Translations under genes and position numbers: made by a program
DNA from: Heptranchias perlo
Taxonomy: Eukaryota
Direction of reading: 5' to 3'
DNA: 64,000 nt
Assembly (NCBI RefSeq): GCF_035084215.1
Contig: NC_090366.1
Coordinates: forward strand, 13,640,001 to 13,704,000
In this document: positions 19,091 to 51,155 of the stretch, one piece after another
Layout: the number at the start of each line of letters is the position of its first letter
Position numbering within the stretch: position 1 is the stretch's first letter
Notes under the pieces: generated by a model
The model's input: only the letters and a program-made list of their open reading frames with translations
The model's database searches: none
What the model was told of the DNA's origin: nothing

Positions 19091-19152
19091 GTAAGTGTGA
19101 AGGTTTAACTTGTTTTTTTGAAAACTCTTGCTTCAATTTTCCCTCCTTAAAG

Positions 19153-26005: not shown

Positions 26006-27992
26006 CTTTCTCTCCTTCCTTCTTTCTTTCTCTCCATCTTTCTTTCTCTCTTTCTTCCTTTATCTCTTTCCTTTCATTCTCTCTTGACTTTGTTTCTCTC
26101 CTTCCTTTCTTTCTCTCCTTTCTATCTTTCTTTCTTCCTTTCTCTCCATTCTAACTTTCTCTCTTTCATTCTTTCTCTCCTTTCTATCTTTCTCTCCTTC
26201 TCTCTTTCTTTCTCTCCTTCCCTCTTTCCTTCTTTCATGGATTCAAGCCCCAACCCATGTCTTTGAACCATTAGGGGACCCGCTGTAACCAGCCTTTTGA
26301 AGGTTGACAGCCTGATTACATGCTTACCAAGTACAGTGTAGTAACATGCAGACAGACAGTCTCTCCGTTAACACAGCTACTGCTCGAGAAACAAGCAAGA
26401 CATTTCGAAGCTGGCACTCAAAGTGGCTTTACACATGATTTATTCACAACCGTGTTCTTGGAATTAAGATTGCACTCTCTCCTGTCTGTTTCTCTCTTTC
26501 CCTTCCTCTTTCCCTGTCTCATTCACCCTCTCCCTTCTCCTCTCATGCCCTCCCTCTCATCCTCTCTCTCTCTCTCTCCCCCTCTTTCACCAGTGTCTCA
26601 CATTCCCCCTTTCCTCTGGTCTCCTGAGACTGTGACAGTGAACATGACTTAGAGTGAGTGGGTGTGAGTGGAGGAAAGTGAGAGAAGGACAGTGAGTGTG
26701 TAAATCAGAGTGTGCGGGAGAGATTAAGGATAATGAGGGTGAGTGGGTGAGTGAGATTAAGGATAATGGTGCATGGGTGGGTGTGAGAGTGTGGGAGAAG
26801 ATTTATGAAACCTGAGAGGGTCTCTTTTAGTCTCATCCAAAAGACGGCACCTCTGACAGTGCGGCACTCCCTCGGTACTGGGAATGTCGGCCTGGATTAT
26901 GGGCTCAAATTTGTGGAGTGGGGACTTGAAATCTCTGGATTAACGTCACAGCGTCAGAACACAAAGGGTTAACAGTTTGCTTAAACCAAAAGACAAAGGT
27001 CCTTCATTTGTGCAAAGTGGGATTTTCTCACTTGTTTCTCACTTCCTCATGTGACTCACAGTGACAGACCAACCATTTCTAATTAAATACACAGAGTCAC
27101 AACTCAGGAAAAGGCCATTCGGACCAAGCAGTGCGTGCTGGCATTTACTCTCCACACGAGCAGTCGGACAGGTCCTGGGTAAGTAAAGCAACGATTGTAA
27201 TTAACTTCCACGACCAATGTCGCTCTTTGTTGGTGTCGCGACTTTGTAAAGAGAGATTTATGCCGTCTAAAGATCTCTACTTTTTATTGAGATGGGGGTG
27301 TAGAGCTGAAGTCTGTCGAACACGACATCTTTCCAGTTCAAGGACTAGGGAAATCCAGGGATTTGAGCCCATAATCCAGGGCAACACTCCCAGAGTCAGT
27401 ACAGAGGGAGCGCTGCACTGTCGGAGGGTCAGTACTGAGGGAGCGCTGCACTGTCGGAGGGTCAGTACTGAGGGAGCGCTGCACTGTCGGAGGGTCAGTA
27501 CTGAGGGAGCGCTGCACTGTCGGAGGGTCAGTACTGAGGGAGTGCTGCACTGTTGGAGGGTCAGTACTGAGGGAGCGCCGCACTGTCGGAGGGCCAGTAC
27601 TGAGGGAGCGCTGCCCTGTCGGAGGGTCAGTACTGAGGGAGCGCTGCACTATTGGAGGTGCCATCTTTCGGACGAGACGTTAAACCGAGGCCCCCGTCTG
27701 TCCCTCTCAGACGGACGTAAAAGATCCCACGGCCACTATTGGATGAAGAGCAGGGGGAGTTCTCCTGGCACTGTCGAAATGCAAGTTCTGTCTTTTTTTC
27801 TCTTTCTTAAAGCCTTGTAACTCACTGCAGACAACCCATCATCCCACATAGAATCAAATTAGTCCGTGAAGACATTGTCCAGAAGCAGTTTTAATATCTG
27901 CAGAGCTGTCGGGCAAGAGGTGAGTTCTCATTTACTTGTTTCTCTTTCAGACCTTGAGAGTGAGAAGTTGATGAACTATCTGAGAGTGGACA

Positions 27993-30900
27993 ATGATCAG
28001 GAAACCTTACTTCCTCCTGTCACTTCTCCAAGGTAATATCATCGTCAGGTCGGAGATATTTATGGAAAATAGTCGGTGCAGAGGATCATTGTTATTGAGT
28101 TATGACGAGGGACCAAATTCAGCAGTGACTCAGTGTACTAACTCGCACCGAGTCCCGTTCACCCATCACCCCCTGTGCTCGTTGACCTACATTGGCTCCC
28201 GGTCCGGGAACACCTCGATTTTAAAACCATCATCCTCGTGTTCAAATCCGTCCATGGTATCCTCTCCTCCCTATCTCTGTAACCTCCTCCAGCCCCTACA
28301 ACCCTCTGAGATCTCTGCGCTCCTCCATTTCTGGGCTCTTTCGCATCTGCAATTTCCTTTGCTCCACCATTGGCGGCCGTGCCTTCAGCTGCCTGGGCCC
28401 TAAGCTCTGGAATTCCCTCCCTAAACCTCTCCGCCTCTCTCTCCTCCTTTATGACGCTCCTTAAAACCTACCTCTTTGACCAAGCTTTTGGTCACCTGTC
28501 CTAATATCTCCTTATGTGGCCCGGTGTCAAATTGTGTCTGATAATCGCTCCTGTGAAGCATCTTGGGACGTTTTTTTTAATGACATGATGTAAATGCAAG
28601 TTGCTGACATTGTTTGACTGGCCAGCGATCAACGCTGTTTTTTATTCATTCATGGGATGTGGGCGTCGCTGGCAAGGCCGGCATTTATTGTCCATCCTTA
28701 GTTGTCCCTTGAGAAGGTGGTGGTGAGCCGCCTTCTTGAACCGCTGCAGTCCGTGTGGTGAAGGTTCTCCCACAGTGCTGTTAAGAAGGGAGTTCCAAGA
28801 TATTGACCCAGTGACGATGGAGGAACGGCCGATATATCTCCAACTCGGGATGGTGTGTGACTCGGAGGGGAACCTGGAGGTGATGAACAACCTCCAACAT
28901 TGCTGCTCTTGACCTTTTGGGTGGTAGAGGTCGCAGGGGAGGGAGATGCTGTCACTGTAACCTTGGGGAGTTCCATGTGTACCCTGTAGATGGTACACAC
29001 TGGAGCCACAGTAGGCCAGTGATGGAAGGGGGGGATGGTGGATCTCGAGTCCAGTGGATCTACGAGCCATCCAGTGCTAAATATCGATATTTTTTCTCCT
29101 CAGCTGTATTGTCACAAGAGTGGAAGGCCGACACCCCACGAGATGTGAGAGCACAGAAAGGTTTGTGTGCGCTGATTCCATGCCATTACAGTTATCCATC
29201 GAATTTGGCAAACAAACAGCGAGATGGAGTCTGGTTTAACACTGAGAAAGAGAGACCATGGGCTCCCCTAGCCTTTCACTCCAAGGACCACGGACACGAG
29301 TCGGACCGATTCAGACATCGGACCGGTCTGTCTGGAGACCTGAAAGATGGCGACTGTTCCCTGATTATAAACAACATCACAGCGGAAGATGCAGGTCCTT
29401 ATTTTTTCAGAGTAGAATTTGGCAACGGGGAAAACTTCAACTATTACCCAGCAACACAGCTTCACGTTTCCGGTAAGTGCTGTTTATAATTACTCATCAA
29501 TTCACTTTCAACAGTCAATGGGAAATAATATAAACTATTAACACAAAACATTATAATAACGCAGCTTCTGATTATCAATAACCAGGCGATACCTTCCAGT
29601 TCAGTCTTAAAGCAACCGTTAATACTCACTTTATAAGCAATGATTAAATGCCTTGACTGTGTCCATTAATGTTATCAAGTTATCGGCACCCATCTATCTA
29701 TCTAATCATACTGAAAAATCTTAAATATCGAAGAAAGAAGGAACTTGCATTTCTATCGTGCCTTTCACAAACTCAGGATGTCCCAAAGCGCTTTACAGTT
29801 AAATACTTTTGAAGTGTGTTCACTGTTGTAATGTAGGAAACACGGCAGCCAATTCGCACACAGCAAGATCCCACAAACAGCAATGTGATGGATGACCAGA
29901 TCATCAGTGTTTTAGCGATGTTGCTTGAGTGATAAATATTGGCCCCAGGACACCGGGAGAACTTCTTGCTGTGGCCAGGATTTAATTTCACGTTTGCAGA
30001 GATCCCTGAGAAGGTTACAAGGCAGTGTTACCCGAGCTGGGATCTGCTCCTCCACTCCCACCCAGTATTGTCAATCCAAGGGTCTCAGAGTGAAAGTGCA
30101 TCAATCACATTGACAGGCACTCCGCCCAGTCCGAAAACAGGGAAGTCCTTTCTCTTGTGGGACTGTGGTTTATATTTGAACTGATTCTCCAAGTTATATT
30201 TAACTAAAAGGATGTATTCTCTGCCAGATTTCACAGATAAACCCACAATATTCGCTCCTGAAATTATTGAGGGTAAATCTTGCAACATAACCTGCACCTT
30301 CAACACAACGTGCAGGGGAACAGCACCTGACTTAACCTGGGACAATCCCACTGATGTTCCTGGGTCTGTCTCAAACAGTGTAACTCAGCATGGTGGAACT
30401 CTGACATATTCTTCTGTTCTGACTCTGGTCCCATCACCCAAACACTACGGGCAGACTCTCACCTGTAGAGTCAGCTTCCCATCTGTTTCATCGCAACGGA
30501 CCCTCGCACTAACTGTTCAATGTAAGTACCAACATCTTTCCTGAATTAATTTTTTGGGTGCTTTTCTCCAAGGGCACACTCTGTTGCTTCAAGGGGTCAG
30601 TGTTTCGTTCATCTAAAGATACAACACAAAGGACACCGACATCTTGGGTTTATACAGCGTCTTTAGCGTAGGGAAACATCCCAAGGCACTTCACAGAGGC
30701 AGCTGGAGAAAAAAGTACGGCAAGACAAAGAAGGAGATATTAGCTAAACTTTGATAAAACTCTGGTTAGGCTCCAGCTGGAGTATTGTGTCCAATTCTGG
30801 GCACCGCACTTTAGGAAGGATGTCAAGGCCTTGGAGAGGGTGCAGAGGAGATTTACCAGAATGGTATCAGGGATGAGGGACTTCAGTTATGTGGAGAGAC

Positions 30901-32813
30901 TGGAGAAGCTGGGATTGTTCTCCTTAGAGCAGAGAAGGTTAAGGGGAGATTTAATGGAGGGGTTCAAAATCATGAAGGGTTTTGATAGAGTAAATAAGGA
31001 GAAACTGTTTCCAGTGGCAGGAGGGTCGGTAACCAGAGGACACAGATTTAAGGTAATTGGCAAAAGAACCAGAGGGGGAGATGAGGAGAATTTTTTTACG
31101 CAGCGAGTTGTGATGATCTGGAATGCGCTGCCTGAAAGGGCGGTGGAAGCAGATTGAATAATAACTTTCAAAAGGGGAATTGGATAAATACTTGAAAAGG
31201 ACAAATTTACAGGGGCTACGGGGAAAGAGCAGGGGAATGGGATTAATTGGATAGATCTTTCGAAGAGCAGGCACATTATAAAAGTCGGTACAGGAACTTT
31301 TAATGAGGAAAGATGCCTGGAAATGCATGCAGACAAAAGATACAGGGAGATGAAGCATGGGCTCCTGCTGTACGCTGTGTTTGCTGCGACAGGTTGCTGT
31401 TCTCTGTAAAATCAATAAAAACTCTATTTGTCTTTAGACGCTCCGAGGAATCTCTCAATTACTTCTCTTGATACGATTAAAGATTCATCGATCAGTATAA
31501 CAGAAGGGAATTCTACAGCCCTACACTGCTCTGTCGAAAGCTTCCCAGCTTCCAATCTGAGGTGGGAACATCTCGGAGTCACAGTGAACAGAAGCAGTTC
31601 CAACAACGAGGTGCGATTGGAGCTTCCTCACGTGACATCCAGGGTCGCTGGAGAGTATCGGTGTGTGGCGGAGAATGAACATGGGGCTGTGGAGAGTTCC
31701 ATAACCATCACCGTGGAACGTGAGTCTGGAGATACTTCCACATCTCGCTAAATACAAACAAATTAATATCGACGGGTGACTGTGGATTTTACAAAGTGAG
31801 TTTGGGCGTAACTTTGTTCGTAACAGTAACGGGTCGGATTTTCTTCACGGAATTGGCTTGGTGATACTGATCGATATTTAAATCCCACCATACTCGGAAT
31901 GGTGGGCGCTTCATTCACTTTGAGCAGAGAGAGCAGCGACTGGTCGAGTCGATCGGTCTGGATCCCATTATAATTTGGATCCAGAGTTCATGGAAATGGC
32001 AGCAGTTCTGTATCACTGAGGAATCATCAGGAGTTACATGTGCACAGATACACACACATGCCAATAGACACATACACACAAACATGTAAACAGTCACACA
32101 CATGTACACAGGCACAGACACGTACAAACACACATGCACAGGCACACACGTGCACACACTCTCATTCACACACACACAGATACACACACACACACACCCA
32201 AGAGTTGCTATTCTCACCCCTTTTAATCCAGTTGCAACCGAGCCTGAACCTGGTCAGTCGGTCTTTGTTGCAGAGGGCTGGAGCTCAGGATCAGAGTGAT
32301 GGAATATCGATCGCTTCCTCTGGGATCAGGGATCACTGTGATCACTCCTGGATTCCACAGTGAGATCACCAATCATAAAGCGACCTCTGGGGGGGACTGG
32401 GAATGTGGTTTTACATAAATATTACAAATTACATATAAATATTACATATATAGACATTGAATATAGATATAATAGATAAATATTATAGAAAATATTACAT
32501 ATTCAGATATTAAATATATAGAGATTACATATACAGATATTACATATTCAGATATTAAATATATAGAGATCACATATACAGATATTACATATTCAGATAT
32601 TAAATATGTGGAGATTACATATATAAATATTACTTGTGTTGGGTAATCACTTCTCAAGGTCAGAATAAGTATAAGTTGATCAGAGCATCGTACTAAAACT
32701 GTGGTTGTTTTTACAGGGAGAGAAACACATGAATGGAAAGGAGCATTGCTTGGTGTTGGAATCACATTGAGTGGGACACTGGCCGGGTTCTTGATCTACA
32801 TGTGCGTGCGAAA
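27993..32813 (+). CDS. Siglec-like receptor, copy B2 (direct duplicate of B1)
   Basis: Leader 27993-28032, V-set 29104-29472 (GPYFFRVEF), C2 30228-30521, C2 31438-31719, TM 32717-32813; canonical splice sites and open frames. Confidence 0.88.
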
Positions 32814-34953
32814 GTAAGTGTGAAGGTTTAACTTGTTTTTTTGAAAACTCTTGCTTCAATTTTCCCTCCTTAAAGGAAAGAAGGAACTTGCATTTCTATC
32901 GCGCCTTTCACAACCTCAGGACGCCGCAAAGCACTTTACAGCCAATGAAATACTTTCGAAGTGCAGTCACTGTTGTAAAGTAGGAAACGCGGCAGCCAAT
33001 TTGCGCACAGCAAGATCCCACAAACAGCAATGTGATAATGACCAGGTCATCTGTTTTTGTAGTGATGTTGTTTGATGGATGAATATTGGCCCCAGGACAC
33101 TGGGGAGAACTCCCCCTGCTCGTCTTCGAAATAGTGGCCGTGGGATCTTTTACACCCACCTGAGAGGGGCAGACGGGGGGCCTCGGTTTAACATCTCATC
33201 CCGAAGGACAGACAGTGCAGCGCCCCCTCAGTGCTAACACTGGGGAGTGTCGGCCTGGATTATAAAGCTGTTAGGGACATCCTGAGGTCACGAAAGGCGC
33301 TATATCAATGCAAGTCTTCATTATTTAGCTGACAGCCAGAACCAAATGATAGACTGACCCAGTACAGTACAGTAACATGCAGCCCAACGATCTCACTGCA
33401 AACACAGCGACTGCTAGAGAAACAAGCAAGATATTTTGAGGCGAGCACACAAATTGGACTTTGACGTGATTTATTTCCAGCCGTGTACTTGGAATTAAGA
33501 TTACGCTCTCTCCTGCCTGTTTCTTTCTTTTCTTCCACTTTTTCTGTCTCATTCGTCCTCTCCTTTCTCCTCTTATGTTCTCCCTCTCTCTCGCTCTCTC
33601 TTTCTCCCTCCCTCTTTCACGTTCTCCAGTGTCTCACATTTTCCAGGGAGTTCATGCTCTGGGGCCCAACTGTTCCTTCAGCACAGCCCTTGCTCTCTGG
33701 AATGAGCATTGAATCTAAACTCGACTTCAGCGGCTGCCCAGCTTTACACTGGAATAACGTCACAGTGCCAGGACACAAAGGGTTAAAAGTTTGCTTAAAA
33801 CACGAGACAAAGGCCCTTCATTTGTGCAAAGTGCTATTTTCTCACTTCTCCCCCACTTCCTCATGTGACTCACAGTGACAGGCCAACCATTTCTAATTAA
33901 ATACACAGGGGCCGCAACACAGGAAAAGGCCATTCAGCCCAAGCAGCGCGTGCTGGCATTTACTCTCCACACGAGCAGTCGGACAAGCCCTGGGTAAGTA
34001 AAGCAACGATTGCAATTCACTTCCACGACCTACGTCGCTCTTTGTTGGCGTTGTGACTTTGTAAAGAGACATTCCAATGATTTATGCCTTCCAAAGATTT
34101 CTACTTTTTGTTGCGATCTGGGTGTAGGGCTTAAGTCTATCGTACAGGACATGTTTGTGGTTCAAGGACGAGGGAAATCCAGGGACTTGAGACCATAATC
34201 CAAGCTGAAACTTCCAGTGCAGTACTGAGGGAGTGCTGCACTGTCGGAGGTGCCGCCTTTCGGATGAGACGTTAAATCGAGGGCCCCGTCTGCCCCTCTC
34301 AGGTGGGAGGTAAAAGATCCCACGGCCAATATTTCAATATCAATGATCAAACCCAACATTGATCAATATCAATGATCAAACCCAACATTGATCAATATCA
34401 ATGATCAAACCCATCATTGATCAATATCAATGTTCAAACCCATCATTGATCAATATCAATGTTCAAACCCATCATTGATCAATATCAATGTTCAAACCCA
34501 TCATTGATCAATATCAATGATCAAACCCAACATTGATCAATATCAATGATCAAACCCATCATTGATCAATATCAATGTTCAAACCCATCATTGATCAATA
34601 TCAATGTTCAAACCCATCATTGATCAATATCAATGTTCAAACCCATCATTGATCAATATCAATGATCAAACCCAACATTGATCAATATCAATGATCAAAC
34701 CCAACATTGATCAATATCAATGATCAAACCCATCATTGATCAATATCAATGATCAAACCCATCATTGATCAACATCAATGATCAAACCCAACATTGATCA
34801 ATATCAATGATCAAACCCATCATTGATCAATATCAATGATCAAACCCTGCACGGTTGGGCCTCAATTGCAGATCCAATGATCTAATTGGACTCAAACAAG
34901 CCAATCACAGATTGTGCCGATTGTCACACTGCTCATTTCCTTTTCTATTACAG

Positions 34954-35070
34954 AAGGATGAGGAAGAGACGCTGGGAATCGAAACTGACCGTTACAGGAA
35001 TGTATTTCAAGCCGATAATATCTACGAAAACTGCAATCTTGACGAGGACTCTATTTATGCAAATGTATAA
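34954..35070 (+). CDS. Terminal ITIM-like exon, B2
   Basis: Same translation as 21406-21522. Confidence 0.7.
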   Translation, partial: KDEEETLGIETDRYRNVFQADNIYENCNLDEDSIYANV

Positions 35071-36662
35071 TCTGAGCGAGAAGTAAAAACATGATCTCTG
35101 GGGACAACACAGAAGGCGAGAATCGAAACTCCCCTTTACCTTTCTAGAAACCACAGGACTTCACCCCAAAAAATACAAGTTTTAGACTTCTTGACATAAT
35201 CGAATGTAATTTTTTAAAGCTGATGTTATTTCACAAAGTTTGAGTGATAATGGAGCCGAGATCATTCTCACTGGGTTTCATTTTGTCCGTCCTCCTTCAG
35301 GAATGTCTCTCACTGTTGGAGACATCCTTCTCTCCATTGTGATTATAAATATCTTTCAGTATCGTTCGATATTCCACCAGGACATAACGGACAGTCTCAA
35401 TCCCGTCTGTGTGTTTCAGTCACTTTTCTTCTTGTCATTTCACTTTCCTGTCTGTGAATGTTGACAGAATGGTCGTTACCAAGTGTAGAGTTCAGGGGAA
35501 GCAGGGGTCGAAGATATTTGGACCAGGGCCGATAGATGGAATTTACTCCCCATTTTACACTCATGCTTTCTTCCGCTTATTATTATAAAATGCTTTGATT
35601 TTATATTATCATTCATAGTCACACAGCAAAACTTACAGCAATTTAGGATGTCGGGACATGGAGCAGGTTGGAGCAGGGAATTTCTCTGCAGTACAGACCG
35701 AGGAACTGGGAGACGCAAAACGGAGGGCACACCGCCACCACTGGTGGGAGAGTGTAATTACAGTGTGACGTTTACATAGGCAGTTCCCATTATAAATGTG
35801 GATGGAGGAATTTTTGATGGGAAATGTTGTTTGTAGCTGTACGATTTTTAACATATATACAGATGAAACAGCTTGGATTGCAGAATGAACTATTGTTACA
35901 ATAAACAACTATTTTAATTTTTCAGTCGTTTAAAAGATATTTAAAATACACTTAGCACTCCCTCCCGCTCTTCCCCGATGGCTTAGTCGATGGATGTAAT
36001 CAAGTGATGTGATACAAAATACAGAGACCAAGTTCTGAGTCTCTGTGTTAAATGATCTCAATCAGGTACTTGGATCGAGGGATGGGAAGATAAATCGGGC
36101 TCCTGCCCTTAATCTGCAGCCGGTGGCTCCCTCTGTTCAGTGCAGGCTGAGTGAAGACAGAATTGTGTTCGAGGGATCTACCCCCCATGGTCAATCAGCC
36201 CGTTTGTCCGCTGACTGGTGCAAAATGGCCACCTGGGTCAGGCACCGTGCTTTGCTGCACCGCTGGAACTGGACCCATGCATCAGTCAGTGCCTTAAGAA
36301 CAGGAGAATTCTAACGTAACTAAGATTTACACAGAAACTGGGTGGCTATTGTAGTCGAATATCGAGTGTTCACTGGAATGGACACATGTCGACTCCAGTT
36401 GAGAATGAACCTCAGGGGAGAACTTTCTCTGGTTGCTATGTGTGTGTGGCATCATTAACAGAGCAGTCCTGGAGTGCGGCAGAAGTGGTGCTGCAGAATT
36501 TCTATCCATTAAGTTACTGGTGGCCCCAACTCCATACACAACAGCCCACATTTCTGCATTGGGTGGCACTAATTGGTGGCATGGCTCTGAGAGGTCACAA
36601 AGATTGGCTGTGGCACCAATAGAATTGGGTTGGCACCAGGATTGCTGTTCTTGGGGTCTTTG

Positions 36663-37925
36663 TTTTATTCATTCATGGGATGTGGGCGTCGCTGGCGAGG
36701 CCGGCATTTATTGCCCATCCCTAATTGCCCCTTGAGAAGGTGGTGGTGAGCCGCCTTCTTGAACCGCTGCAGTCCGTGTGGTGAAGGTTCTCCCACAGTG
36801 CTGTTAGGAAGGGAGTTCCAGGATTTTGACCCAGCGACGATGAAGGAACGGCGATATATTTCCAAGTCGGGATGGTGTGTGACTTGGAGGGGAACGTGCA
36901 GGTGGTGTTGTCCCCATGTGCCTGCTGCTCTTGTCCTTCTAGGTGGTAGAGGTCGCGGGTTCGGGACGTGCTGTCGAAGAAGCCTTGGCGAGTTGCTGCA
37001 GTGCATCCTGTGGATGGTACACACTGCAGCCACTGTGCGCCGGTGCTGAAGGGAGTGAATGTTTCGGGTGGTGGATGGGGTGCCAATCAAGCGGGCTGCT
37101 TTGTCCTGAATGGTGTCGAGCTTCTTGAGTGTTGTTGGAGCTGCACTCATCCAGGCAAGTGGAGAGTATTCCATCACACTCCTGACTTGTGCCTTGTAGA
37201 TGGTGGAAAGTCTTTGGGGAGTCAGGAGGTGAGTCACTCGCCGCAGAATACCCAGCCTCTGACCTGCTCTTGCAGCCACAGCATTTATATGGCTGGTCCA
37301 GTTAAGTTTCTGGTCAATGGTTACCCCCAGGATGTTGATGTTGGGGGATTCGGTGATGGTAATGCCGTTGAATGTCAAGGGGAGGTGGTTAGACTCTCTT
37401 GTTGGATATGGCCATTGCCTGGCACTTGTCTGGCGCGAATGTTGCTTGCCACTTATGAGCCCAAGCCTGGATGTCGTCCAGGTCTTGCTGCATGCGGGCT
37501 CGGACTGCTTCATTATCTGAGGGGCTGCGAATGGAACTGAACACTGTGCAATCATCAGTGAACATCCCCATTTCTGACCTTATGATGGAGGGAAGGTCAT
37601 TGATGAAGCAGCTGAAGATGGTTGGGCCTAGGACACTGCCCTGAGGAACTCCTGCAACAATGTCCTGGGGCTGAGATGTTTGGCCTCCAACAACCACTAC
37701 CATCTTCCTTTGTGCTTGGTATGACTCCAGCCACTGGAGAGTTTTCCCCCTGATTCCCATTGACTTCAATTTCACGAGGGCTCCTTGGTGCCACACTCGG
37801 TCAAATGCTGCCTTGATGTCAAGGGCAGTCACTCTCACCTCACCTCTGGAATTCAGCTCTTTTGTCCATCTTTGGACCAAGGCTGTAATGAGGTCTGGAG
37901 CCGAGTGGTCCTGGCGGAACCCAAT
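36663..37925 (-). mobile_element. Inverted copy of the Zenon-like LINE at the inversion junction
   Basis: ORFs 37389..38078 and 36665..37555 mirror 23778..25149; CR1 tail with about four 42-bp repeats at ~38200-38357. Confidence 0.85.
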
Positions 37926-40427
37926 CCTAATCTCCAACGGGAATCCAGAACAAGGGGCCACAATCTTAATATTAGAGCCAGGCTGTTCTGGAGTGAACTC
38001 AGGAAGCATTTTTTCACACAAAGGGGAGTGGAAATCTGGAACTCCCTCCCCCACAACGCTGTGGATGCTGGGAGTCAATTGAAATTGAGATTGATAGATT
38101 TTTGTCGGGTAAGGGAATCAAGGGATGTGGAGCAAAGGCAGGTAAATGGAGTTGAGGTACAGATCAGCCCTGATCTAACGGTTTTGGGGAGCTAATCGAG
38201 GATGCTGAATGGCCTCCTCCTGTTCCTATGTAACAGGCTCAAGGGGCTGAATGGCCTCCTCCTGTTCCTATGTAACAGGCTCAAGGGGCTGAATGGCCTC
38301 CTCCTGTTCCTATGTAACAGGCTCAAGGGGCTGAATGGCCTCCTCCTGTTCCTATGTTGGGAGCTCATTGTGCTAATTTCTCACTCTGTAAAATCCCTCA
38401 CTCATCCAATTTTATACCTTTGCCCCCAAACAATGAGGCTCCTTGTCTCATCTGCCTTCCAATGAACTTCCAGCTCACTTAAGGGCAAATACCAGATCGG
38501 GACTAAAGCTCACACTATTCTGCTTCGGAAATGTTCCTTAACCCCACTCAACCCAGAAGGACAAGGGCAGCAGGTGCATGGGAACACCATCAACTCCACA
38601 TTCCCCACAAAGTCACACACCATCCCGACTTGGGGATATATCGACTGTTCCTTCATCGTCGCTGGGTCAAAATCCTGGAACTCCCTTCCTAACAGCACTG
38701 TGGGAGAACCGTCACCACACGGACTGCAGCGGTTCAAGAAGGCGGCTCACCACCACCTTCTCAAGGGGCAACTAGGGATGGGCAATAAATGCCGGCCTCG
38801 CCAGCGACGCCCACATCCCCTGAATGAATAAAACAAAGACCCCAAGAACAGCAATCCTGGTGCCAACCCAATTCTATTGGTGCCACAGCCAATCTTTGTG
38901 ACCTCTCAGAGCCATGCCACCAATTAGTGCCACCCAATGCAGAAATGTGGGCTGTTGTGTGTGGAGTTGGGGCCACCAGTAACTTAATGGATAGAAATTC
39001 TGCAGCACCACTTCTGCCGCACTCCAGGACTGCTCTGTTAATGATGCCACACACACATAGCAACCAGAGAAAGTTCTCCCCTGAGGTTCATTCTCAACTG
39101 GAGTCGACATGAGTCCATTCCAGTGAACACTCGATATTCGACTACAAGAGCCACCCACTTTCTGTGTAAATCTTAGTTACGTTAGAGTTCTCCTGTTCTT
39201 AAGGCACTGACTGATGCATGGGTCCAGTTCCAGCGGTGCAGCAAAGCTCGGTGCCTGACCCAGGTGGCCATTTTGCACCATTCAGTGGACAAACGGGCTG
39301 ATTGACCATGGGGGGCAGATCCCTCGAACACAATTCTGTCTTCACTCAGCCCGCACTTAACAGAGGGAGCCACCGGCTGCAGATTAAGGGCAGGAGCCCG
39401 ATTTATCTTCCCACCCCTCGATCCAAGTACCTGATTGAGATCATTTAACACAGAGACTCAGAACTTGGTCTCTGTATTTTGTATCACATCACTTGATTAC
39501 ATCCATCGACTAAGCCATCGGGGAAGAGGGGGCGGGAGTGTTAATTGTATTTTAAATATCTTTTAAACGACTGAAAAATTAAAATAGTTGTTTATTGTAA
39601 CAATAGTTCATTCTGCAATCCAAGCTGTTTCATCTGTATATGATATATTAAAAATCGTACAGCTACAAGCAACATTTCCCATCAAAAATTCCTCCATCCA
39701 CTTTTATAACAAGAACTGCCTATGTAAACGTCACGCTGTAATTACACTCTCCCACCAGTGGTGGCGGTGTGCCCACCGTTTTGCGTCTCCCAGTTCCTCG
39801 GTCTGTACTGCAATGAAATTCCCTGCTCCAACCAGCTCCATGTCCCGACATCCTAAATTGCTGTAAGTTTTGCTGTGTGACTATGAATGATAATATAAAA
39901 TCAAAGCATTTTATAATAATAAGCGGAAGAAAGCATGAGTGTAAAATGGGGAGTAAATTCCATCTATCGGCCCTGGTCCAAATATCTTCGACCCCTGCTT
40001 CCCCTGAACTCTACACTTGGTAACGACCATTCTGTCAACATTCACAGACAGGAAAGTGAAATGACAAGAAGAAAAGTGACTGAAACACACAGACGGGATT
40101 GAGACTGTCCGTTATGTCCTGGTGGAATATCGAACGATACTGAAAGATATTTATAATCACAATGGAGAGAAGGATGTCTCCAACAGTGAGAGACATTCCT
40201 GAAGGAGGACGGACAAAATGAAACCCAGTGAGAATGATCTCGGCTCCATTATCACTCAAACTTTGTGAAATAACATCAGCTTTAAAAAATTACATTCGAT
40301 TATGTCAAGAAGTTTAAAACTTGTATTTTTGGGGTGAAGTCCTGTGGTTTCTAGAAAGGTAAAGGGGAGTTTCGATTCTCGCCTTCTGTGTTGTCCCCAG
40401 AGATCATGTTTTTACTTCTCGCTCAGA

Positions 40428-40544
40428 TTATACATTTGCATAAATAGAGTCCTCGTCAAGATTGCAGTTTTCGTAGATATTATCGGCTTGAAATACATTC
40501 CTGTAACGGTCAGTTTCGATTCCCAGCGTCTCTTCCTCATCCTT
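40428..40544 (-). CDS. Terminal ITIM-like exon, B3
   Basis: Same translation as the B1 and B2 terminal exons, on the minus strand. Confidence 0.7.
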   Translation of the reverse strand, partial: KDEEETLGIETDRYRNVFQADNIYENCNLDEDSIYANV

Positions 40545-42468
40545 CTGTAATAGAAAAGGAAATGAGCAGTGTGACAATCGGCACAATCTGTGATTGGCTT
40601 GTTTGAGTCCAATTAGATCATTGGATCTGCAATTGAGGCCCAACCGTGCAGGGTTTGATCATTGATATTGATCAATGATGGGTTTGATCATTGATATTGA
40701 TCAATGATGGGTTTGATCATTGATATTGATCAATGATGGGTTTGATCATTGATATTGATCAATGATGGGTTTGATCATTGATATTGATCAATTTTGGGTT
40801 TGATCATTGATATTGATCAATGTTGGGTTTGATCATTGATATTGATCAATGTTGGGTTTGATCATTGATATTGATCAATGATGGGTTTGATCATTGATAT
40901 TGATCAATGTTGGGTTTGATTATTGATATTGATCAATGTTGGGTTTGATCATTGATATTGAAATAGTGGCCGTGGGATCTTTTACCTCCCACCTGAGAGG
41001 GGCAGACGGAGCCTCGATTTAACGTCTCATCCGAAAGGCGGCACCTCCGACAGTGCAGCACTCCCTCAGCACTGCACTGGAAGTTTCAGCTTGGATTATG
41101 GTCTCAAGTCCCTGGATTTCCCTCGCCCTCGAACCAGAAACATGTCCTGTACGATAGACTGAAGCCCAACACCCAGATCGCAACAAAAAGTAGAAATCTT
41201 TGGAAGGCATAAATCATTGAAATCTCTCTTTACAAAGTCACAACGCCAACAAAGAGCGACGTAGGTCGTGGAAGTGAATTGCAATCGTTGCTTTACTTAC
41301 CCAGGGCTTGTCCGACTGCTCGTGTGGAGAGTAAATGCCAGCACGCACTGCTTGGGCTGAATGGCCTTTTCCTGTGTTGCGGCCCCTGTGTATTTAATTA
41401 GAAATGGTTGGTCTGTCGCTGTGAGTCACATGAGGAAGTGGGGAAGAAGTGAGAAAATAGCACTTTGCACAAATGAAGGGCCTTTGTCTCGTGTTTTAAG
41501 CAAACTTTTAACCCTTTGTGTCCTGGCACTGTGACGTTATTCCAGTGTAAAGCTGGGCAGCCGCTGAAGTAGAGTTTAGATTCAATGCTCATTCCAGAGA
41601 GCAAGGGCTGTGCTGAAGGAACAGTTGGGCCCCAGAGCATGAACTCCCTGGAAAATGTGAGACACTGGAGAATGTGAAAGAGGGAGAGAGAGAGAGAGAG
41701 AGAACATCAGAGGAGAAAGGAGAGGACGAATGAGACAGAAAAAGTGGAAGAAAAGAAAGAAACAGGCAGGAGAGAGCGTGATCTTAATTGCAAGTACATG
41801 GCTGGAAATAAATCACGTCAAAGTCCAATTTGTGTGTTCGCCTCAAAATATCCTGCTTGTTTCTCCAGCAGTCGCTGTGTTTACAGTGAGATCGTTGGGC
41901 TGCATGTTACTGTACTGTACAGGGTAAGTATATCATTTGGTTCTGGCTGTCAGCTAAATAAAGAAGACTTGCATTGATATAGCGCCTTTCGTGACCTCAG
42001 GATGTCCCAAAGAGCTTGATAATCCAGGCCGACACTCCCCAGTGTTAGTACTGAGGGGGTTCTGCACTGTCTGTCTTTCGGGATGAGACGTTAAACCGAG
42101 GCCCCCCGTCTGCCCTCTCAGGTGGGTGTAAAAGATCCCACGGCCACTATTTCGAAGAAGAGCAGGGGGGAGTTCTCCCCGGTGTCCTGGGGCCAATATT
42201 CATCCATCAAACAACATCACTACAAAAACAGATGACCTGGTCATTATCACATTGCTGTTTGTGGGATCTTGCTGTGCGCAAATTGGCTGCCGCGTTTCCT
42301 ACTTTACAACAGTGACTGCACTTCAAAAGTATTTCATTGGCTGTAAAGTGCTTTGCGGCGTCCTGAGGTTGTGAAAGGCGCGATAGAAATGCAAGTTCCT
42401 TCTTTCCTTTAAGGAGGGAAAATTGAAGCAAGAGTTTTCAAAAAAACAAGTTAAACCTTCACACTTAC

Positions 42469-45400
42469 TTTCGCACGCAGATGTAGATCAAGAACCCGGC
42501 CAGTGTCCCACTCAACGTGATTCCAACACCAAGCAATGCTCCTTTCCATTCATGTGTTTCTCTCCCTGTAAAAACAACCACAGTTTTAGTACGATGCTCT
42601 GATCAACTTATACTTATTCTGACCTTGAGAAGTGATTACCCAACACAACTAATATTTATATATGTAATCTCCACATATTTAATATCTGTATATGTAATAT
42701 CTGTATATGTAGTCACTATATATTTAATATCTGAATAGGTAATACTTATATATAATATTTATCTATTATATCTATATTCAATATCTATATGTGTAATATT
42801 TATATATAATACCTATATTCAATATCTATATATGTAATATTTATATGTAATTTGTAATATTAATGTAAAACTACATTCCCAGTCCCCGCCAGAGGTCGCT
42901 TTATGATTGGTGATCTCACTGTGGAATCCAGGAGTGATCACAGTGATCCCTGATCCCAGGGGAAGCGATCGATATTCCATCACTCTGATCCTGAGCTCCA
43001 GCCCTCTGTAACAAAGACCGACTGACCAGGTTCAGGCTCGGTTGCAACTGGATTAAAAGGGGTGAGAATAGCAACTCTTGGGGGTGTGTGTGTGTGTGTA
43101 TGTGTGTGTGTGTGTGAATGAGAGTGTGTGCACGTGTGTGCCTGTGCACGTGTGTTTGTACGTGTCTGTGCCTGTGTACATGTGTGTAACTGTTTACATG
43201 TTTGTGTGTATGTGTCTATTGGCATGTGTGTGTATCTGTGCACATGTAACTCCTGATGATTCCTCAGTGATACAGAACTGCTGCCATTTCCATGAACTGT
43301 GGATCCAAATTATAATGGGATCCAGACCGATCGACTCGACCAGTCGCTGCTCTCTCTGCTCAAAGTGAATGAAGCGCCCACCATTCCGAGTATGGTGGGA
43401 TTTAAATATCGATCAGTATCACCAAGCCAATTCCGTGAAGAAAATCCAACCCATTACTGTTACGAACAAAGTTACGCCCAAACTCACTTTGTAAAATCCA
43501 CAGTCACCCGTCGATATTAATTTGTTTGTATTTAGCGAGATGTGGAAGTATCTCCAGACTCACGTTCCACGGTGATGGTTATGGAACTCTCCACAGCCCC
43601 ATGTTCATTCTCCGCCACACACCGATACTCTCCAGCGACCCTGGATGTCACGTGAGGAAGCTCCAATCGTACCTCGTTGTTGGAACTGCTTCTGTTCACT
43701 GTGACTCCGAGATGTTCCCACCTCAGATTGGAAGCTGGGAAGCTTTCGACAGAGCAGTGTAGGGCTGTAGAATTCCCTTCTGTTATACTGATCGATGAAT
43801 CTTTAATCATATCAAGAGAAGTAATTGAGAGATTCCTCGGAGCGTCTAAAGACAAATAGAGTTTTTATGGATTTTACAGAGAACAGCAACCTGTCGCAGC
43901 AAACACAGCGTACAGCAGGAGCCCATGCTTCATCTCCCTGTATCTTTTGTCTGCATGCATTTCCAGGCATCTTTCCTCATGAAAAGTTCCTGTACCGACT
44001 TTTATAACGTGCCGGCTCTTTGAAAGATCGATCCAATTAATCCCATTCCCCTGCTCGTTCCCCGTAGCCCCTGTAAATTTTTCCCCTTCAAGTATTTATC
44101 CAATTCCCCTTTTGAAAGTTATTATTGAATCTGCTTCCACCGCCCTTTCAGGCAGCGCATTCCAGATCATCACAACTCGCTGCGTAAAAAACATTCTCTT
44201 CATCTCCCCCTCTGGTTCTTTTGCCAATTACCTTAAATCTGTGTCCTCTGGTTACCGACCCTCCTGCCACTGGAAACAATTTCTCCTTATTTACTCTATC
44301 AAAACCCATTCATGATTTTGAACACCTCTATTAAATCTCCCCTTAACCTTCTCTGCTCCCAGGAGAACAATCCCAGCTTCTCCAGTCTCTCCACATAACT
44401 GAAGTCCCTCATCCCTGGGACCATTCTGGTAAATCTCCTCTGCACCCTCTCCAAGGCCTTGACATCCTTCCTAAAGTGCGGTGCCCAGAATTGGACACAA
44501 TACTCCAGCTGGAGCCTAACCAGAGTTTTATCAAAGTTTAGCTAATATCTCCTTCTTTGTCTTACCGTACTTTTTTCTCCAGCTGCCTCTGTGAAGTGCC
44601 TTGCGATGTTTCCCTACGCTAAAGATGCTGTATAAACCCAAGATGGAGGTGTCCTTTGTGTTGTATCTTTAGATGAACGAAACATTGACCCCTTGAAGCA
44701 ACAGAGTGTGCCCTTGGAGAAAAGCACCCAAAAAATTAATTCAGGAAAGATGTTGGTACTTACATTGAACAGTTAGTGCGAGGGTCCGTTGCGATGAAAC
44801 AGATGGGAAGCTGACTCTACAGGTGAGAGTCTGCCCGTAGTGTTTGGGTGATGGGACCAGAGTCAGAACAGAAGAATATGTCAGAGTTCCACCATGCTGA
44901 GTTACACTGTTTGAGACAGACCCGGGAACATCAGTGGGATTGTCCCAGGTTAAGTCAGGTGCTGTTCCCCTGCACGTTGTGTTGAAGGTGCAGGTTATGT
45001 TGCAAGATTTACCCTCAATAATTTCAGGAGCGAATATTGTGGGTTTATCTGTGAAATCTGGCAGAGAATACATCCTTTTAGTTAAATATAACTTGGAGAA
45101 TCAGTTCAAATATAAACCACAGTCCCACAAGGGGGTCTTTTCTCCAGAAAAGAGAAGGCTGAGGGCTGACCTGATAGAGGTCTTCAAAATCTCATAAAAT
45201 TGACAATTAATGGACACGGTCAAGACATTGAATCATTGATTATAAAGTGAGTATTAACGGTTGCTTTAAGACTGAACCGGAAGGTATCGCCTGGTTATTG
45301 ATAATCAGAAGCTGCGTTATTATAATGTTTTGTGTTAATAGTTTATATTATTTCCCATTGACTGTTGAAAGTGAATTGATGAGTAATTATAAACAGCACT

Positions 45401-46885
45401 TACCGGAAACGTGAAGCTGTGTTGCTGGGTAATAGTTGAAGTTTTCCCCGTTGTCAAATTCTACTCTGAAAAAATAAGGACCTGCATCTTCCGCTGTGAT
45501 GTTGTTTATAATCAGGGAACAGTCGCCATCTTTCAGGTCTCCAGACAGACCGGTCCGATGTCTGAACCGGTCCGACTCGTGTCCGTGGTCCTTGGAGTGA
45601 AAGGCTAGGGGAGCCCATGGTCTCACTTCCTCAGTGTTAAACCAGACTCCATCTCGATGTTTGTTTGCCAAATTCGATGGGTAACTGTAATGGCATGGAA
45701 TCAGCGCACACAAACCTTTCTGTGCTCTCACATCTCGTGGGGTGTCGGCCTTCCACTCTTGTGACAATACAGCTGAGGAGATAAAATATCGATATTTAGC
45801 ACTGGATGACTCGTAGATCCACTGGACTCGAGATCCACCATCCCCCCCTTCCATCACTGGCCTACTGTGGCTCCAGTGTGTACCATCTACAGGGTACACA
45901 TGGAACTCCCCAAGGTTACAGTGACAGCATCTCCCTCCCCTGCGACCTCTACCACCCAAAAGGTCAAGAGCAGCAATGTTGGAGGTTGCTCATCACCTCC
46001 AAGTTCCCCTCCGAGTCACACACCATCCCGAGTTGGAGATATATCGGCCGTTCCTCCATCGTCGTTGGGTCAATATCCTGGAACTCGCACTGTGGGAGAA
46101 TCTTCATCACACGGACTGCAGCGGTTCAAGAAGGCGGCTCACCACCACCGTCTCAAGGGCAACTCGGGATGGGCAATAAATGCCGGCCTCGCCAGCGACG
46201 CCCACATCCCAAGAATGAATAAAAAACAGCGTTGATCGCTGGCCAGTCAAACAATGTCAACAACTTGCATTTACATCACGTCTTTAAAAAAAACGTCCCA
46301 AGGCGCTTCACAGGAGTGATTATCAGACACAATTTGTCACTGAGCCACATAAGGAGATATGAGGACAGGTGACCAAAAGCTTGGTCAAAGAGGTCAGTTT
46401 TAAGGAGCGTCTTAAAGGAGGAGAGAGAGAGGCGGAGAGGATTAGGGAGGGAATTCCAGAGCTTAGGGCCCAGGCAGCTGAAGGCACGGCCGCCAATGGT
46501 GGAGCGATGGAAATCGGGGATGGACAAGAGGCCAGAATTGGAGGAGTGCAGAGATCTCGGAGGGTTGTAGGGCTGGAGGAGGTTGCAGTGATGTGGGGGG
46601 GTGGGGGTGGGGAGAGGAGGCCATGGAGGGATTTGAACACGAGGATGATGGTTTTAAAATCGAGGTGTTCCCGGACCTGGAGCCAATGTCGGTCAGCGAG
46701 CACAGGGGGTGATGGGTGAACGGGACTCGGTGCGAGTTAGTACACTGAGTCACTGCTGAATTTGGTCCCTCGTCATAACTCAATAACAATGATCGTTTGC
46801 ACCGACTATTATCCATAAATATCTCCGACCTGACGATGATATTACCTTGGAGAAGTGACAGGAGGAAGTAAGGTTTCCTGATCAT
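42469..46885 (-). CDS. Siglec-like receptor, copy B3 (inverted)
   Basis: Leader 46885-46846, V-set 45772-45404 (GPYFFRVEF), C2 45057-44764, C2 43845-43564, TM 42565-42469 (IYICVRK); canonical splice sites and open frames. Confidence 0.88.
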
Positions 46886-47219
46886 TGTCCACTCTCAGAT
46901 ATTTCATCAACTTCTCACTCTCAAGGTCTGAAAGAGAAACAAGTAAATGAGAACTCACCTCTTGCCCGACAGCTCTGCAGATATTAAAACTGCTTCTAGA
47001 CAATGTCTTCACGGACTAATTTGATTCTATGTGTGATGATGGGTTGTCTGCAGTGAGTTACAAGGCTTTAAGAAAGAGAAAAAAAGACAGAACTTGCATT
47101 TCTACAGTGCCAGGACAACTCCCCCTGCTCTTCATCCAATAGTGGCCGTGGGATCTTTCACATCCGCCTCAGAGGGACAGACGGGGGCCTCGGTTTAACC
47201 TCTCATCCGAAAGATGGCA

Positions 47220-48502
47220 CCTCCAACAGTGCAGCGCTCCCTCAGTACTGACCCTCTGACCGTGCAGCGCTCCCTCAGTACTGACCCACCGACAGTGCAG
47301 CGCTCACTCAGTACTGACCCTCCGACAGTGCGGCGCTCCCTCAGTACTGACCCTCCGACAGTGCAGCGCTCCCTCAGTACTGACCCTCCGACAGTGCGGC
47401 GCTCCCTCAGTACTGACCCTCCGACAGTGCGGCGCTCCCTCAGTACTGACCCTCCGACAGTGCGGAACTCCCTCAGTGCTGACCCTCCGACAGTGCTGCG
47501 CTCCCTCAGTACTGACCCTCCGCCAGTGCAGCGCTCCCTCAGTACTGACCCTCCGACAGTGCAGCGCTCCCTCAGTACTGACCCTCCGACAGTGCAGCGC
47601 TCCCTCAGTACTGACCCTCCGACAGTGCGGCGCTCCCTCAGTACTGACCCTCCGACAGTGCGGTGCTCCCTCAGTACTGACCCTCTGAGAGTGCAGCGCT
47701 CCCTCAGTACTGACCCTCTGACAGTGCAGCGCTCCCTCAGTACTGATCCTCCGACAGTGCGGCGCTCCCTCAGTACCGACCCTCCGACAGTGCGGCGCTC
47801 CCTCAGTACTGACCCTCCGACAGTGCGGCGCTCCCTCGGTACTGACCCTCCGACAGTGCGGCGCTCCCTCAGTACTGATCCTCCGACAGTGCGGCGCTCC
47901 CTCAGTACTGACCCTCCGACAGTGCGGCGCTCCCTCAGTACTGACCCTCCGACAGTGCGGCGCTCCCTCAGTACTGACCCTCCGACAGTGCGGCGCTCCC
48001 TCTGTCTGACCCTCCGACAGTGCGGATCTCCCTCAGTACTGACCCTCCGACAGTGCTGCGCTCCCTCAGTACTGACCCTCCGCCAGTGCAGCGTTCCCTC
48101 AGTACTGACCCTCCGACAGTGCAGCGCTCCCTCAGAACTGACCCTCCGACAGTGCAGCGCTCCCCCAGTCCTGACCCTCCGACAGTGCGGCGCTCCCTCA
48201 GTACTGACCCTCCGACAGTGCGGCGCTCCCTCAGTACTGACCCTCCGACAGTGCAGCGCTCCCTCAGTACTGACCCTCTGACAGTGCAGCGCTCCCTCAG
48301 AACTGACCCTCCGACAGTGCGGCGCTCCCACAGTACTGACCCTCCGACAGTGCGGCGCTCCCTCGGTACTGACCCTCCGACAGTGCGGCGCTCCCTCAGT
48401 ACTGACCCTCCGACAGTGCGGCGCTCCCTCAGTACTGACCCTCCGACAGTGCGGCGCTCCCTCAGTACTGACCCTCCGACAGTGCGGCGCTCCCTCAGTA
48501 CT
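47220..48502 (-). repeat. 33-bp SINE-derived minisatellite, about 39 units (B3)
   Basis: Reverse-complement unit; source of the 11-aa repeat ORFs at 47195-48553. Confidence 0.95.
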
Positions 48503-49899
48503 GCCTCTGGGAGTGTTGCTGGATTATGGACTCAAATCCCTGGATTTCCTTGAACTGGAAAGATGTCGTGTTCGACAGACTTCAGCTCTACACCCCCATC
48601 TCAATAAAAAGTAGAGATCTTTCGACAGCCTAAATCTCTCTTTACAAAGTCACGACACCAACAAAGAGCGACATTGGTCATGGAAGTTAATTACAATCGT
48701 TGCTTTACTTACCCAGGACCTGTCCGACTGCTCGTGTGGAGAGTAAATGCCAGCACGCACTGCTTGGGCTGAGTGGCCTTTTCCTGAGTTGTGACTCTGT
48801 GTATTTAATTAGAAATGGTTGGCATGTCACTGTGAGTCAGATGAGGAAGTGAGAAACAAGTGAGAAAATAGCACTTTGCACAAATGAAGGACCTTTGTCT
48901 TTTGTTTTAAGCAAACTGTTAACCCTTTGTGTCCTGGCGCTGTGACATTAATCCAGAGATTTCAAGTCCCCACTCCAGAAACTGGAGCCCATAATCCAGG
49001 CCGACACTCCCAGTACCGAGGGAGTGCCGCACTGTCAGAGGTGCCGTCTTTTGGATGAGATTAAAAAGAGACCCTCTCAGGTTTCACAAATCTTCTCCCA
49101 CACTCTCACACCCACCCATGCACCATTATCCTTAATCCCTCTCGCACTCTGATTCATACATTCACTATCCTTCTCTCACACTCTAACACACACCCACTCA
49201 CTCTCATTATCCTTAATCTCTCGCACACTCTGATTTACACACTCACTGTCCTTCTCACTTCCACTCACACCCACTCACTCTAAGTAATGTTCACTGTCAC
49301 AGTCTCAGGAGACCAGAGGAAAGGGGGAATGTGAGACACTGGTGAAAGAGTGGGGGAGAGAGAGAGAGAGAGGATGAGAGGGAGGGCATGAGAGGAGAAG
49401 GGAGAGGATGAATGAGACAGGGAAAGAGGAAGGGAAAGAGAGAAACAGGCAGGAGAGAGTGCAATCTTAATTCCAAGAACACGGTTGTGAATAAATCATG
49501 TGTAAAGCCACTTTGAGTGCCAGCTTCGAAATGTCTTGCTTGTTTCTCCAGCAGTAGCTGTGTTAACGGAGAGACTGTCTGTCTGCATGTTACTACACTG
49601 TACTTGGTAAGCATGTAATCAGGCTGACAACCTTCAAAAGGCTGGTTCCAGTGGGTCTCCTAATGGTTCAAAGACATGGGTTGCGTTTCGGGCCGCTGAT
49701 ATTGGCCGTAATGTCTCCATCTCGTGGCACTGGAAAAGGCAGGAGGATATTCTTGGAATGCCACCGACAGGATGTGGGAGGAGACGATTCAACCAAGTTC
49801 TCTGGAATGTGTAATTTGATTCAGTCATCGTCCGGCAGGCGACCGAGTTCAGACAACGTACAGTGCGAACACAACGGATTTCAGAAATCCAACGGTGTT

Positions 49900-50740: not shown

Positions 50741-50930
50741 GATTTCCGTGAACATACAGCGGAGTTTGACCCATGAGGGATGATTGTTACTCCCAGTAAA
50801 TGACTCTCGGTGGGTTTGCTCTCTGTTCCTGTGCCCTGGTCGGTCAGAATTAGTTCATAATAAGACACAACAGCTTTAAAAAATTTCAAACAACTTGGCA
50901 TCAACTGCGCCAAGTAAGGCCATGGGTGCA

Positions 50931-51155
50931 TTACGTCAGAAACCATCCAACCGGGAGGACTGATAACATCCCCCAAACACAGATTGTCTGAGTTCACCCT
51001 GATCTCCAGCTCACTCTTTCATAAGAGGCACTTATCACCTCTTACACAACGCAATAGAAAGTGAAAGCTAATAACTGGTGAGCCTGTTCGACTCAACAGT
51101 TCCAGATTTGCAACATAACAAACTGATCCCCGATACGATTCAACCCAGGGTAAGT
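50931..51155 (+). promoter_or_regulatory. Putative promoter and non-coding first exon of the MAG/CD22-like gene with ISRE-like motif
   Basis: ttacgtca 50931-50938, agaaagtgaaagct 51056-51069, donor agg|gtaagt at 51149; leader acceptor at 57110. Mirror at 8294-8519. Motif-only inference. Confidence 0.42.

Follow-up and report, generated by a model that had tools for sequence, protein, structure and literature searches.

A chimeric LINE 3′ end at an inversion junction in a Siglec-like gene cluster of the shark Heptranchias perlo

Organization of the locus

The 64-kb stretch of Heptranchias perlo DNA analysed here (NC_090366.1; hereafter the window, with its first letter as position 1) carries, as established by masked self-BLAST, a series of blocks in the order A, B1, z1, s1, L1, x and B2, followed by inverted L2, s2, z2, B3 and A (Table 1). 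Copy numbers within the window are two for A, three for B and two for the s-L unit, and the three B copies are oriented + + - along it. The duplicate arms, that is, B2 and B3 on the one hand and A-B1-z-s-L and its inverted counterpart on the other, are 95-99% identical in the self-BLAST, and since inverted A ends at 59818 with a match to position 1 of the window, the arms probably continue beyond it. Two novel joins are internal to the window, a head-to-tail join from x to B2 at 26251 and the join from B2 into L2 at 36663, and the return junction, at which the inversion would end, is absent from the 64 kb. From the flank of B2 to the flank of B3 the distance is 2171 bp, and the s and L of that interval are also present in copy 1. 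This layout bears out the preliminary description of the locus, made from the letters alone, according to which the flank of B1 joins an antisense z with a sense L about 2 kb further on (2.1 kb by self-BLAST), and the same flank of B2 joins inverted L, followed by inverted z, B3 and A.

Table 1. Blocks and genes of the 64-kb window, in window positions.
Feature	Position	Strand	Remarks
A, left arm	1-12670	-	leader and V-set exon of a second Siglec/MAG-like gene
Gene A, left arm	leader 2681-2634; V-set exon about 2335-1970	-	MAG-like
B1	12670-23089	+	holds intact seven-exon Siglec-like gene
B1 gene	start 14397; last coding exon from 21406	+	intact, seven exons
z1, 283-bp antisense LINE 3′ end	23090-23372	-	91.5% identical to L1
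Copy-1 spacer	23373-23932		43-bp flank, 120-bp copy-1-only piece, s1 (2.9 tandem units)
L1, 5′-truncated sense LINE	23933-25199	+	3′ end 2.1 kb from z1 3′ end
x, single-copy segment	25200-26250		(TCTT)n array at its end
B2	26251-36662	+	intact gene copy; patchwork ages
B2 gene	start 27993; last coding exon from 34954	+	intact
L2, inverted duplicate of L1	36663-37925	-	carries part of a reverse transcriptase (Pfam RVT_1, E 8e-26)
Junction J, chimeric LINE 3′ end	36663-36944	-	last ~55 bp z-type, remainder L-type
s2, 3′ fragment of a second retroelement	37926-38357	+	duplicate of s1; ends in 42-bp tandem repeats (3.7 units)
Copy-2-only 150 bp (38358-38507) and 43-bp z flank	38358-38550		flank exactly as in copy 1
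z2, inverted duplicate of z1	38551-38833	+	5 of 283 columns differ
B3	38834-49683	-	intact gene copy; tail to tail with B2
B3 gene	start 46885; last coding exon from 40544	-	intact
Inverted A	49683-59818	+	second Siglec/MAG-like gene repeated
Gene A, inverted arm	leader 57125; V-set exon about 57471-57836	+	more Ig exons at 60964 and 63248

The two arms also differ in length in places: the 32-bp array holds 117 units in A and 26 in inverted A, and a 365-bp insert at 53033-53397 is specific to the inverted arm. Next to z, the shared 43-bp flank is followed in copy 1 by 120 bp (23416-23536), which we take to resemble the tail of a shark retroelement, and in copy 2 by an unrelated 150 bp (38358-38507). 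The tail repeats are fewer in copy 1 than in copy 2, and the difference between the spacers is for this reason best read as an insertion accompanied by a deletion in copy 1.

Siglec-like genes

The gene of the B block is made up of a leader, a V-set, a C2-set, an I-set, a transmembrane and two cytoplasmic exons, with an open frame and canonical splice sites in all three copies. The top PDB matches of its V-set domain are MAG, sialoadhesin and Siglec-10, -5 and -7 (E values from 1e-13 to 4e-12), and the arginine in its F strand aligns with that of MAG, presumably the sialic-acid-binding residue. Matches to C2-set and I-set domains are found as well, and the C terminus carries SIYANV, a cytoplasmic tyrosine motif which we take as a match to the ITIM consensus. 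The combination of V-set, further Ig domains, transmembrane segment and tyrosine motif marks the B gene as a putative Siglec-like receptor, which may bind sialic acid. Protein models of H. perlo map onto the window exon by exon, and such models are also the closest (96-99% identity) among the listed matches of the B2 V-set exon, all but one of the 98 being shark or ray proteins; further B-like genes lie outside the window (P0023, P0030). For gene A, no sign of a third copy was seen, with one H. perlo model carrying its V domain among 16 protein matches, a weak indication given that clusters merge at 90%.

Identity and duplication of the LINE ends

In z and L the expected marks of a LINE are present, namely a remnant of RVT_1, 5′ truncation, an A-rich 3′ end and a high copy number, and the clade is presumably CR1-like. 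In Logan contigs the depth is higher by orders of magnitude across 36663-37925, a value not read here as copy number. Inspection by eye reveals no clear target-site duplication that would pair z or L with either flank.

L1 and L2 have the same 5′ end and the same adjoining retroelement tail, base for base, and are 97.7% identical (27 of 1191 columns differ), the next closest copy of the family in the window reaching 92%; z1 and z2 have the same 5′ end and the same 43-bp flank. Family contigs from public runs diverge in sequence past 37924, and because they continue differently there, this position is an end specific to the copy. As both the truncation point and the neighbouring fragment are exactly common with L1, L2 is a duplicate. 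An independent insertion at 36663-37925, the alternative named in the preliminary description, is ruled out by these same two features.

A chimeric LINE end at the junction

The alignment of z1, z2, J and L1 with four other family copies of the LINE end (eight copies in all) gives a site table in which two types of positions can be distinguished. At 15 sites between 36724 and 36941, J agrees with L1, unlike z1 and z2, in accordance with the L-type bases noted before from about 36723 onward (36724, 36785 and 36850 among them), whereas at 36671, 36696 and 36717, and at 36662 on the edge of the flank, J is identical to z1 and z2, unlike L1. J has private changes in addition, two substitutions and a 1-bp deletion. 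One position, 36676, contradicts a clean switch, with T in J and L1, C in z1 and G in z2; in z1 the position belongs to a CpG, and among the eight copies T is the commonest letter. The same B flank sequence precedes z1, J and z2, and J lies 1.6 kb beyond the stop codon of B2, where no annotated exon is interrupted.

The passage from z-type to L-type letters is most likely located at 36718-36723, within the last 60 bp or so of the LINE 3′ end to which the crossover had been assigned from the start, and the likelihood ratio in favour of this position over a join in the poly-T is about 370 (14 of the 15 L-type sites used). The poly-T join would need three later mutations in L1 (p = 0.03 at 1.2% per lineage, 0.15 at 2.4%), and also a first stretch of 61 bp without any L-specific site; later changes of this kind in L1 (p 0.03-0.15) could explain the three z-type sites, as could subsequent conversion from z2. 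The switch adjoins the outer edge of the longest perfect tract between z and L (60 bp, about 36725-36784). A homology-mediated crossover between the 3′ ends of z and L is well supported, and this part of the earlier proposal, a template switch or recombination between the two elements, stands. Its other part, that the event created the palindrome, goes further than J itself, which alone cannot separate creation of the palindrome from trimming soon after its formation, since both yield an identical junction.

Words of the junction region recur in 24 listed public runs, all available as Logan contigs, of which four were examined (X1, X2, X5 and X10). The share of words is 0.73 in four runs of one sample, which may be the source sample, so that these runs are non-independent, and 0.21-0.27 in the other 20 runs, probably from the LINE part. 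A 344-letter contig of X1 and X2 covers 36349-36692, reaching 30 letters into the LINE and ending before the first L-type base; it has the B1/B3 letter at 36535 and is neutral on J. The contigs of X1 and X2 leave 38446-38550 without cover, which proves nothing, and those listed for X5 and X10 include no long piece over the B flank.

Ages of the copies and conversion among them

The left copy and the inverted arm were compared over non-CpG columns in 15 segments, with the V exon and the 43-bp flank omitted. The two differ at 246 of 17,049 columns (1.44%). Seven of the segments, consisting of B at 14063-23089 minus the V exon and 21300-21980, plus L, and picked after the table had been seen, have a homogeneous distance of 1.74% (p = 0.98), and the remaining eight span from 0% to 2.7%; the V exon of B1, omitted from the homogeneity test, reaches 6.7%. 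Indels specific to one arm measure 365, 483, 117 and 26 bp. A divergence of about 1.4-1.7%, even over L and most of B, indicates that the inverted arm is old and arose once. With the rate of the epaulette shark, 7e-10 per generation (95% interval 1.4-14.1e-10), as given in the available part of PMC10587355, the arm would have an age of the order of ten million generations, a figure that shows only that the event is old, the rate being that of another species and the estimate being blurred by conversion. B1-B3 divergence is steady over 14063-23089 (1.6-2.1% non-CpG), with the exception of the V exon and the homogenised 21300-21980, and the absence of a jump in this interval leaves no trace of a spacer flip-flop with a crossover inside B. 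Flips resolved inside the conserved stretch beside the spacer would leave nothing visible.

B1 and B2 are strongly uneven over nine segments (p = 6e-13): they differ by 3.5% in 13.3-15.5 kb, by 0.7% in 15.9-20.6 kb, by one change in 635 columns near the last exon and by 1.9% in the last 1.1 kb by the junction. In 13.3-15.5 kb the B1-B2 distance exceeds that of B1-B3 (58 against 33 of 1665 non-CpG columns; p = 0.010), and the 5′ portion of B2, about 2.6-3 kb, is an old paralogue about twice as diverged as the arm, whose private changes stop near 28900, the last dense site being the B1 equivalent of 15279. The value beside the junction is lower than that of the old part (1.9% against 3.5%; p = 0.017) and higher than that of the converted part (0.7%; p = 0.003); private non-CpG changes there number 10, 9 and 11 in 1020 columns, and the last 1.1 kb of B2 is equidistant from B1 and B3. 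This patchwork of distances points to a tandem paralogue that preceded the inverted arm, to exchange of sequence between B1 and B2 since the arm arose, and to a stretch of B2 touching the junction that has the same age as the arm. As the tracts exchanged between B1 and B2 are of many ages, the agreement between the inner end of B2 and the arm may be a coincidence.

Origin of the junction

J is a hybrid LINE end that was probably made by fold-back, or template switch, from the 3′ tail of L into z, with copying back through B, an explanation in which we place moderate confidence. The 3′ tail of L would have offered a DNA end, left by breakage or stalling, that paired with z, 2 kb off and in opposite orientation, and synthesis would then have proceeded backwards through the last 55 bp of z and into B. 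The direction from L to z is suggested by the homology available to the invading tip, since about 220 bp, with the 60-bp perfect tract, lie behind the tip of L, as compared with about 60 bp and three mismatches for a tip on the B side. Through homology close to the first intron, at about 28900, the folded-back B would have been united with the older tandem paralogue, and this would account for the old 5′ part of B2 and for the + + - order, and later conversion from B1 would have overwritten the middle of B2. A second inversion junction, required by the model, would restore the orientation beyond the window, the outcome being one extra copy of each of the two Siglec-like genes. What is directly observed at the locus comprises the chimera, the common truncation points, the single age of the arm and the equal age of the inner 1.1 kb of B2, and the age of B2 on the junction side fits a junction made together with the inverted arm. 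Against the fold-back stands that the window and the four public runs revealed neither an unrearranged haplotype nor the return junction nor a read that crosses J.

Erosion of a palindrome is the alternative that survives best, and we regard it as rather unlikely. The inverted duplication would have been centred beyond x, and the z of the left arm and the L of the right arm, now direct repeats, would have recombined or annealed with loss of the centre, leaving a hybrid LINE. The junction produced would be identical, the structure as it now stands has z1 and L2 as direct repeats, and the available part of PMC10766186 puts forward a route of this type for inverted CNVs in humans, mentioning LINEs and SINEs. 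Recombination between direct repeats in a fresh palindrome, as described there, leads to the same junction and, if quick, to the same ages, which counts against the fold-back; quick trimming and fold-back are inseparable on the letters. Erosion nevertheless requires one more event, it permits but does not predict that the switch falls at the far edge of the 283 bp of homology, and, if late, it should have left the inner end of B2 either old or nearer to B1 than to B3, whereas the three are equidistant (10/9/11).

A long-range switch after the tandem duplication seems to us improbable. A fork that had passed B2 and about 60 bp of its own z would jump 11.5 kb back to L1 on the opposite strand, and, on this equally improbable continuation, L, s, z, B and A would be copied backwards after the jump. 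The observed order would follow directly, with no extra crossover, and the greater age of B1-B2 relative to B1-B3 in 13.3-15.5 kb (p = 0.010) agrees with it. Its invading end, however, would find homology over no more than about 60 bp, 3 mismatches included, and an old B2 is predicted beside the junction, where the observed distance is 1.9% and not 3.5% (p = 0.017).

Very unlikely is the converse possibility that J is ancestral, with B joined to L and x to z, and that copy 1 had its z-s-L block turned round, which would make chimeras of z1, z2 and L1. At each of the four ends the last 55 bp go with the flank, so that the junction is symmetric as far as its own sequence is concerned, and the lack, by eye, of a clear target-site duplication pairing either LINE with either flank is compatible with this order of events, but more events are needed, and L1-L2 should be as old as the tandem duplication, where 1.6% is observed against 3.5% (p = 0.003). 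An assembly artefact, in which a read had folded back or haplotypes had been misjoined at the LINE ends, is hardly credible: although no contig of the four public runs joins J to an L-diagnostic base, a fold-back read would leave the arms near-identical, and they differ at 246 of 17,049 non-CpG columns, by arm-specific indels and by array lengths, as against a nucleotide diversity of 0.002 in another shark (in the available part of PMC10587355), and J has private changes of its own.

Comparison with known systems

J appears to match the kind of junction left by repeat-mediated fold-back, which is documented in human patients (Hermetz et al. 2014, PMC3907307) and in which a hybrid repeat likewise results from a switch at homologous positions of inverted elements. 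In the available part of that study, 3 of 21 fold-back junctions are hybrid repeats, one L1PA2/L1Hs pair (95% over 330 bp) and two Alu pairs (82% and 90% over 296 bp), and spacers measure 766-70,466 bp; the repeat length, identity and spacer of J fall within this range (about 300 bp, 82-95%, a few kb). The human fold-backs presented there are de novo in patients, have a spacer in single copy and end in terminal deletion, translocation or ring, whereas the shark event is old, is placed in a gene cluster and has a spacer that is also present in the upstream copy.

The likeness to inverted-repeat-mediated triplications that the preliminary description had drawn holds for the first junction and not for the locus as a whole. 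J works like junction 1 of DUP-TRP/INV-DUP rearrangements (Grochowski et al. 2024, PMC11293582), a chimeric repeat of an inverted pair with the interval between the repeats duplicated, but the repeats in the accessible text of that work are long near-identical LCRs, with the switch in 2.2-5.5 kb of 100% identity, and the order expected, as derived here from its model, is + - + instead of + + -. Three copies of the same age with the inverted one in the centre are not what the window contains, the order being + + - and the 5′ 3 kb of B2 being older. In view of the copy order, the age of the 5′ part of B2 and the position of junction 2, the return junction, outside the window, the locus is not a canonical inverted triplication. 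J is also similar to ODIRA with secondary erosion (Brewer et al. 2024, PMC10766186), where inverted LINEs turn direct and recombine into a hybrid repeat with a longer spacer, with the difference, relative to the case in the available part of that paper, that neither the original palindromic centre nor a second junction is found within the shark window. Inversions whose junctions fall in transposable elements of opposite orientation are nothing unusual in normal human genomes, where they make up 15 of 493 events (in the accessible portion of PMC9675761), and the LINE-1 elements involved there are more similar (median 97.1%) and the inversions copy-neutral, unlike the shark case.

The CD33-related Siglec cluster of mammals has likewise been enlarged by an inverse duplication (Cao et al. 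2009, cited in the available part of 10.1101/051953), which is far older and larger. Relative to it, the shark event would be recent and, as far as protein matches show, limited to its lineage, and we infer that the likeness between the shark and mammalian Siglec clusters is convergent and not orthologous.

Concluding remarks

No published description of this locus was found in the literature searched, which was mostly without subscription papers. The junction type is already known from human patients, and the shark locus is a new example, base-resolved and evolutionarily retained, in a cartilaginous fish, in which intact immune-receptor genes have been multiplied. It should also be a useful place to follow conversion between gene copies in direct and in inverted orientation. 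A broader scenario, which we put forward as doubtful, is that a single LINE-seeded fold-back built the palindromic Siglec-like cluster of this hexanchiform shark independently of the mammalian inverse duplication, that this arrangement now allows the three copies to homogenise the signalling exon and to swap old variants of the ligand-binding V domain, and that a further junction, hybrid or based on microhomology, would lie beyond the window together with a third copy of A in forward orientation. In summary, the locus suggests that 280 bp of a 92% identical LINE tail may be enough to seed or trim a palindrome of more than 25 kb in sharks, whose genomes are rich in such LINE tails.

Differences among the Copies of the Siglec-like Genes

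The three copies of block B (B1, B2 and B3) are nearly identical over the last coding exon of the B gene and about 0.55 kb downstream of it, with 1 difference in 675 columns. The same exon is found at 100% in P0023, a public Heptranchias perlo protein model for the second Siglec/MAG-like gene (gene A), which indicates that a fourth copy of this exon lies beyond the window. This model consists of gene A fused to a further B-like gene, and P0039 combines exons of B1 with one exon of B2 and one upstream remnant exon; as mapped onto the window, both models look chimeric. Within the first kilobase on the 5′ side of every B block lie remnants, 80-91% identical, of intron 5 and the first cytoplasmic exon of the B gene itself (12734-13737 compared with 19624-20281); they are probably the 3′ part of a tandem copy that existed earlier.

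Minisatellite arrays with 32-, 33- and 29-bp units contrast strongly in length among the copies, and several indels are copy-specific (table); the segment of about 480 bp shows 1 difference in 483 between B1 and B2. The 159-aa frame, present in two places and Myb/SANT-like in appearance, had no Pfam match at the 0.001 cut-off. Four more 3′ ends of the LINE family of junction J are present, and the transition in B2 from old paralogue sequence to younger sequence falls within the one of these that lies in its first intron.

Features of the block copies and their surroundings (window positions)
Feature	Positions	Details
B gene, last coding exon and ~0.55 kb 3′	B1 21300-21980; B2 34848-35529; B3 39970-40650	
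B gene, V exon (compared regions)	B1 15640-15910; B2 29104-29472; B3 45404-45772	
Gene A, V domain	A 1970-2335; inverted A 57471-57836	
32-bp minisatellite	A 8711-12450; inverted A 49903-50739	117; 26 units
33-bp minisatellite	B1 13736-14054; B2 27395-27650; B3 47220-48503	9.7; 7.8; 38.9 units
29-bp minisatellite	B1 20612-21299; B2 34334-34847; B3 40651-40961	23.7; 17.7; 10.7 units
365-bp insert	53033-53397	inverted A only
~480-bp segment	16067-16549	in B1 and B2, missing from B3
117-bp indel	17573	absent from B1
63-bp tandem repeat	63663-64000	extends past window end
LINE 3′ ends	15041-15440; 28635-29030; 45846-46229; 62511-63021	
Reverse-transcriptase open frame	61456-62484 (-)	342 aa; RVT_1, E 3e-11
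159-aa frame	1031-1510 (-); 58295-58774 (+)	

V Domains

In the V domain of gene A, the arginine conserved in MAG and the B genes is replaced by tyrosine, and sialic acid binding in the usual mode would not be expected of it. Among the B genes, the V domain of B1 is separated from those of B2 and B3 by 16-18 non-synonymous codon differences, grouped in two clusters, and by a 9-bp gap, whereas B2 and B3 show 4 such codon differences from each other. Since the B1 type and the B2/B3 type are each present among proteins of other shark species, the V-domain difference of B1 suggests a conversion in which an old paralogue was the donor.
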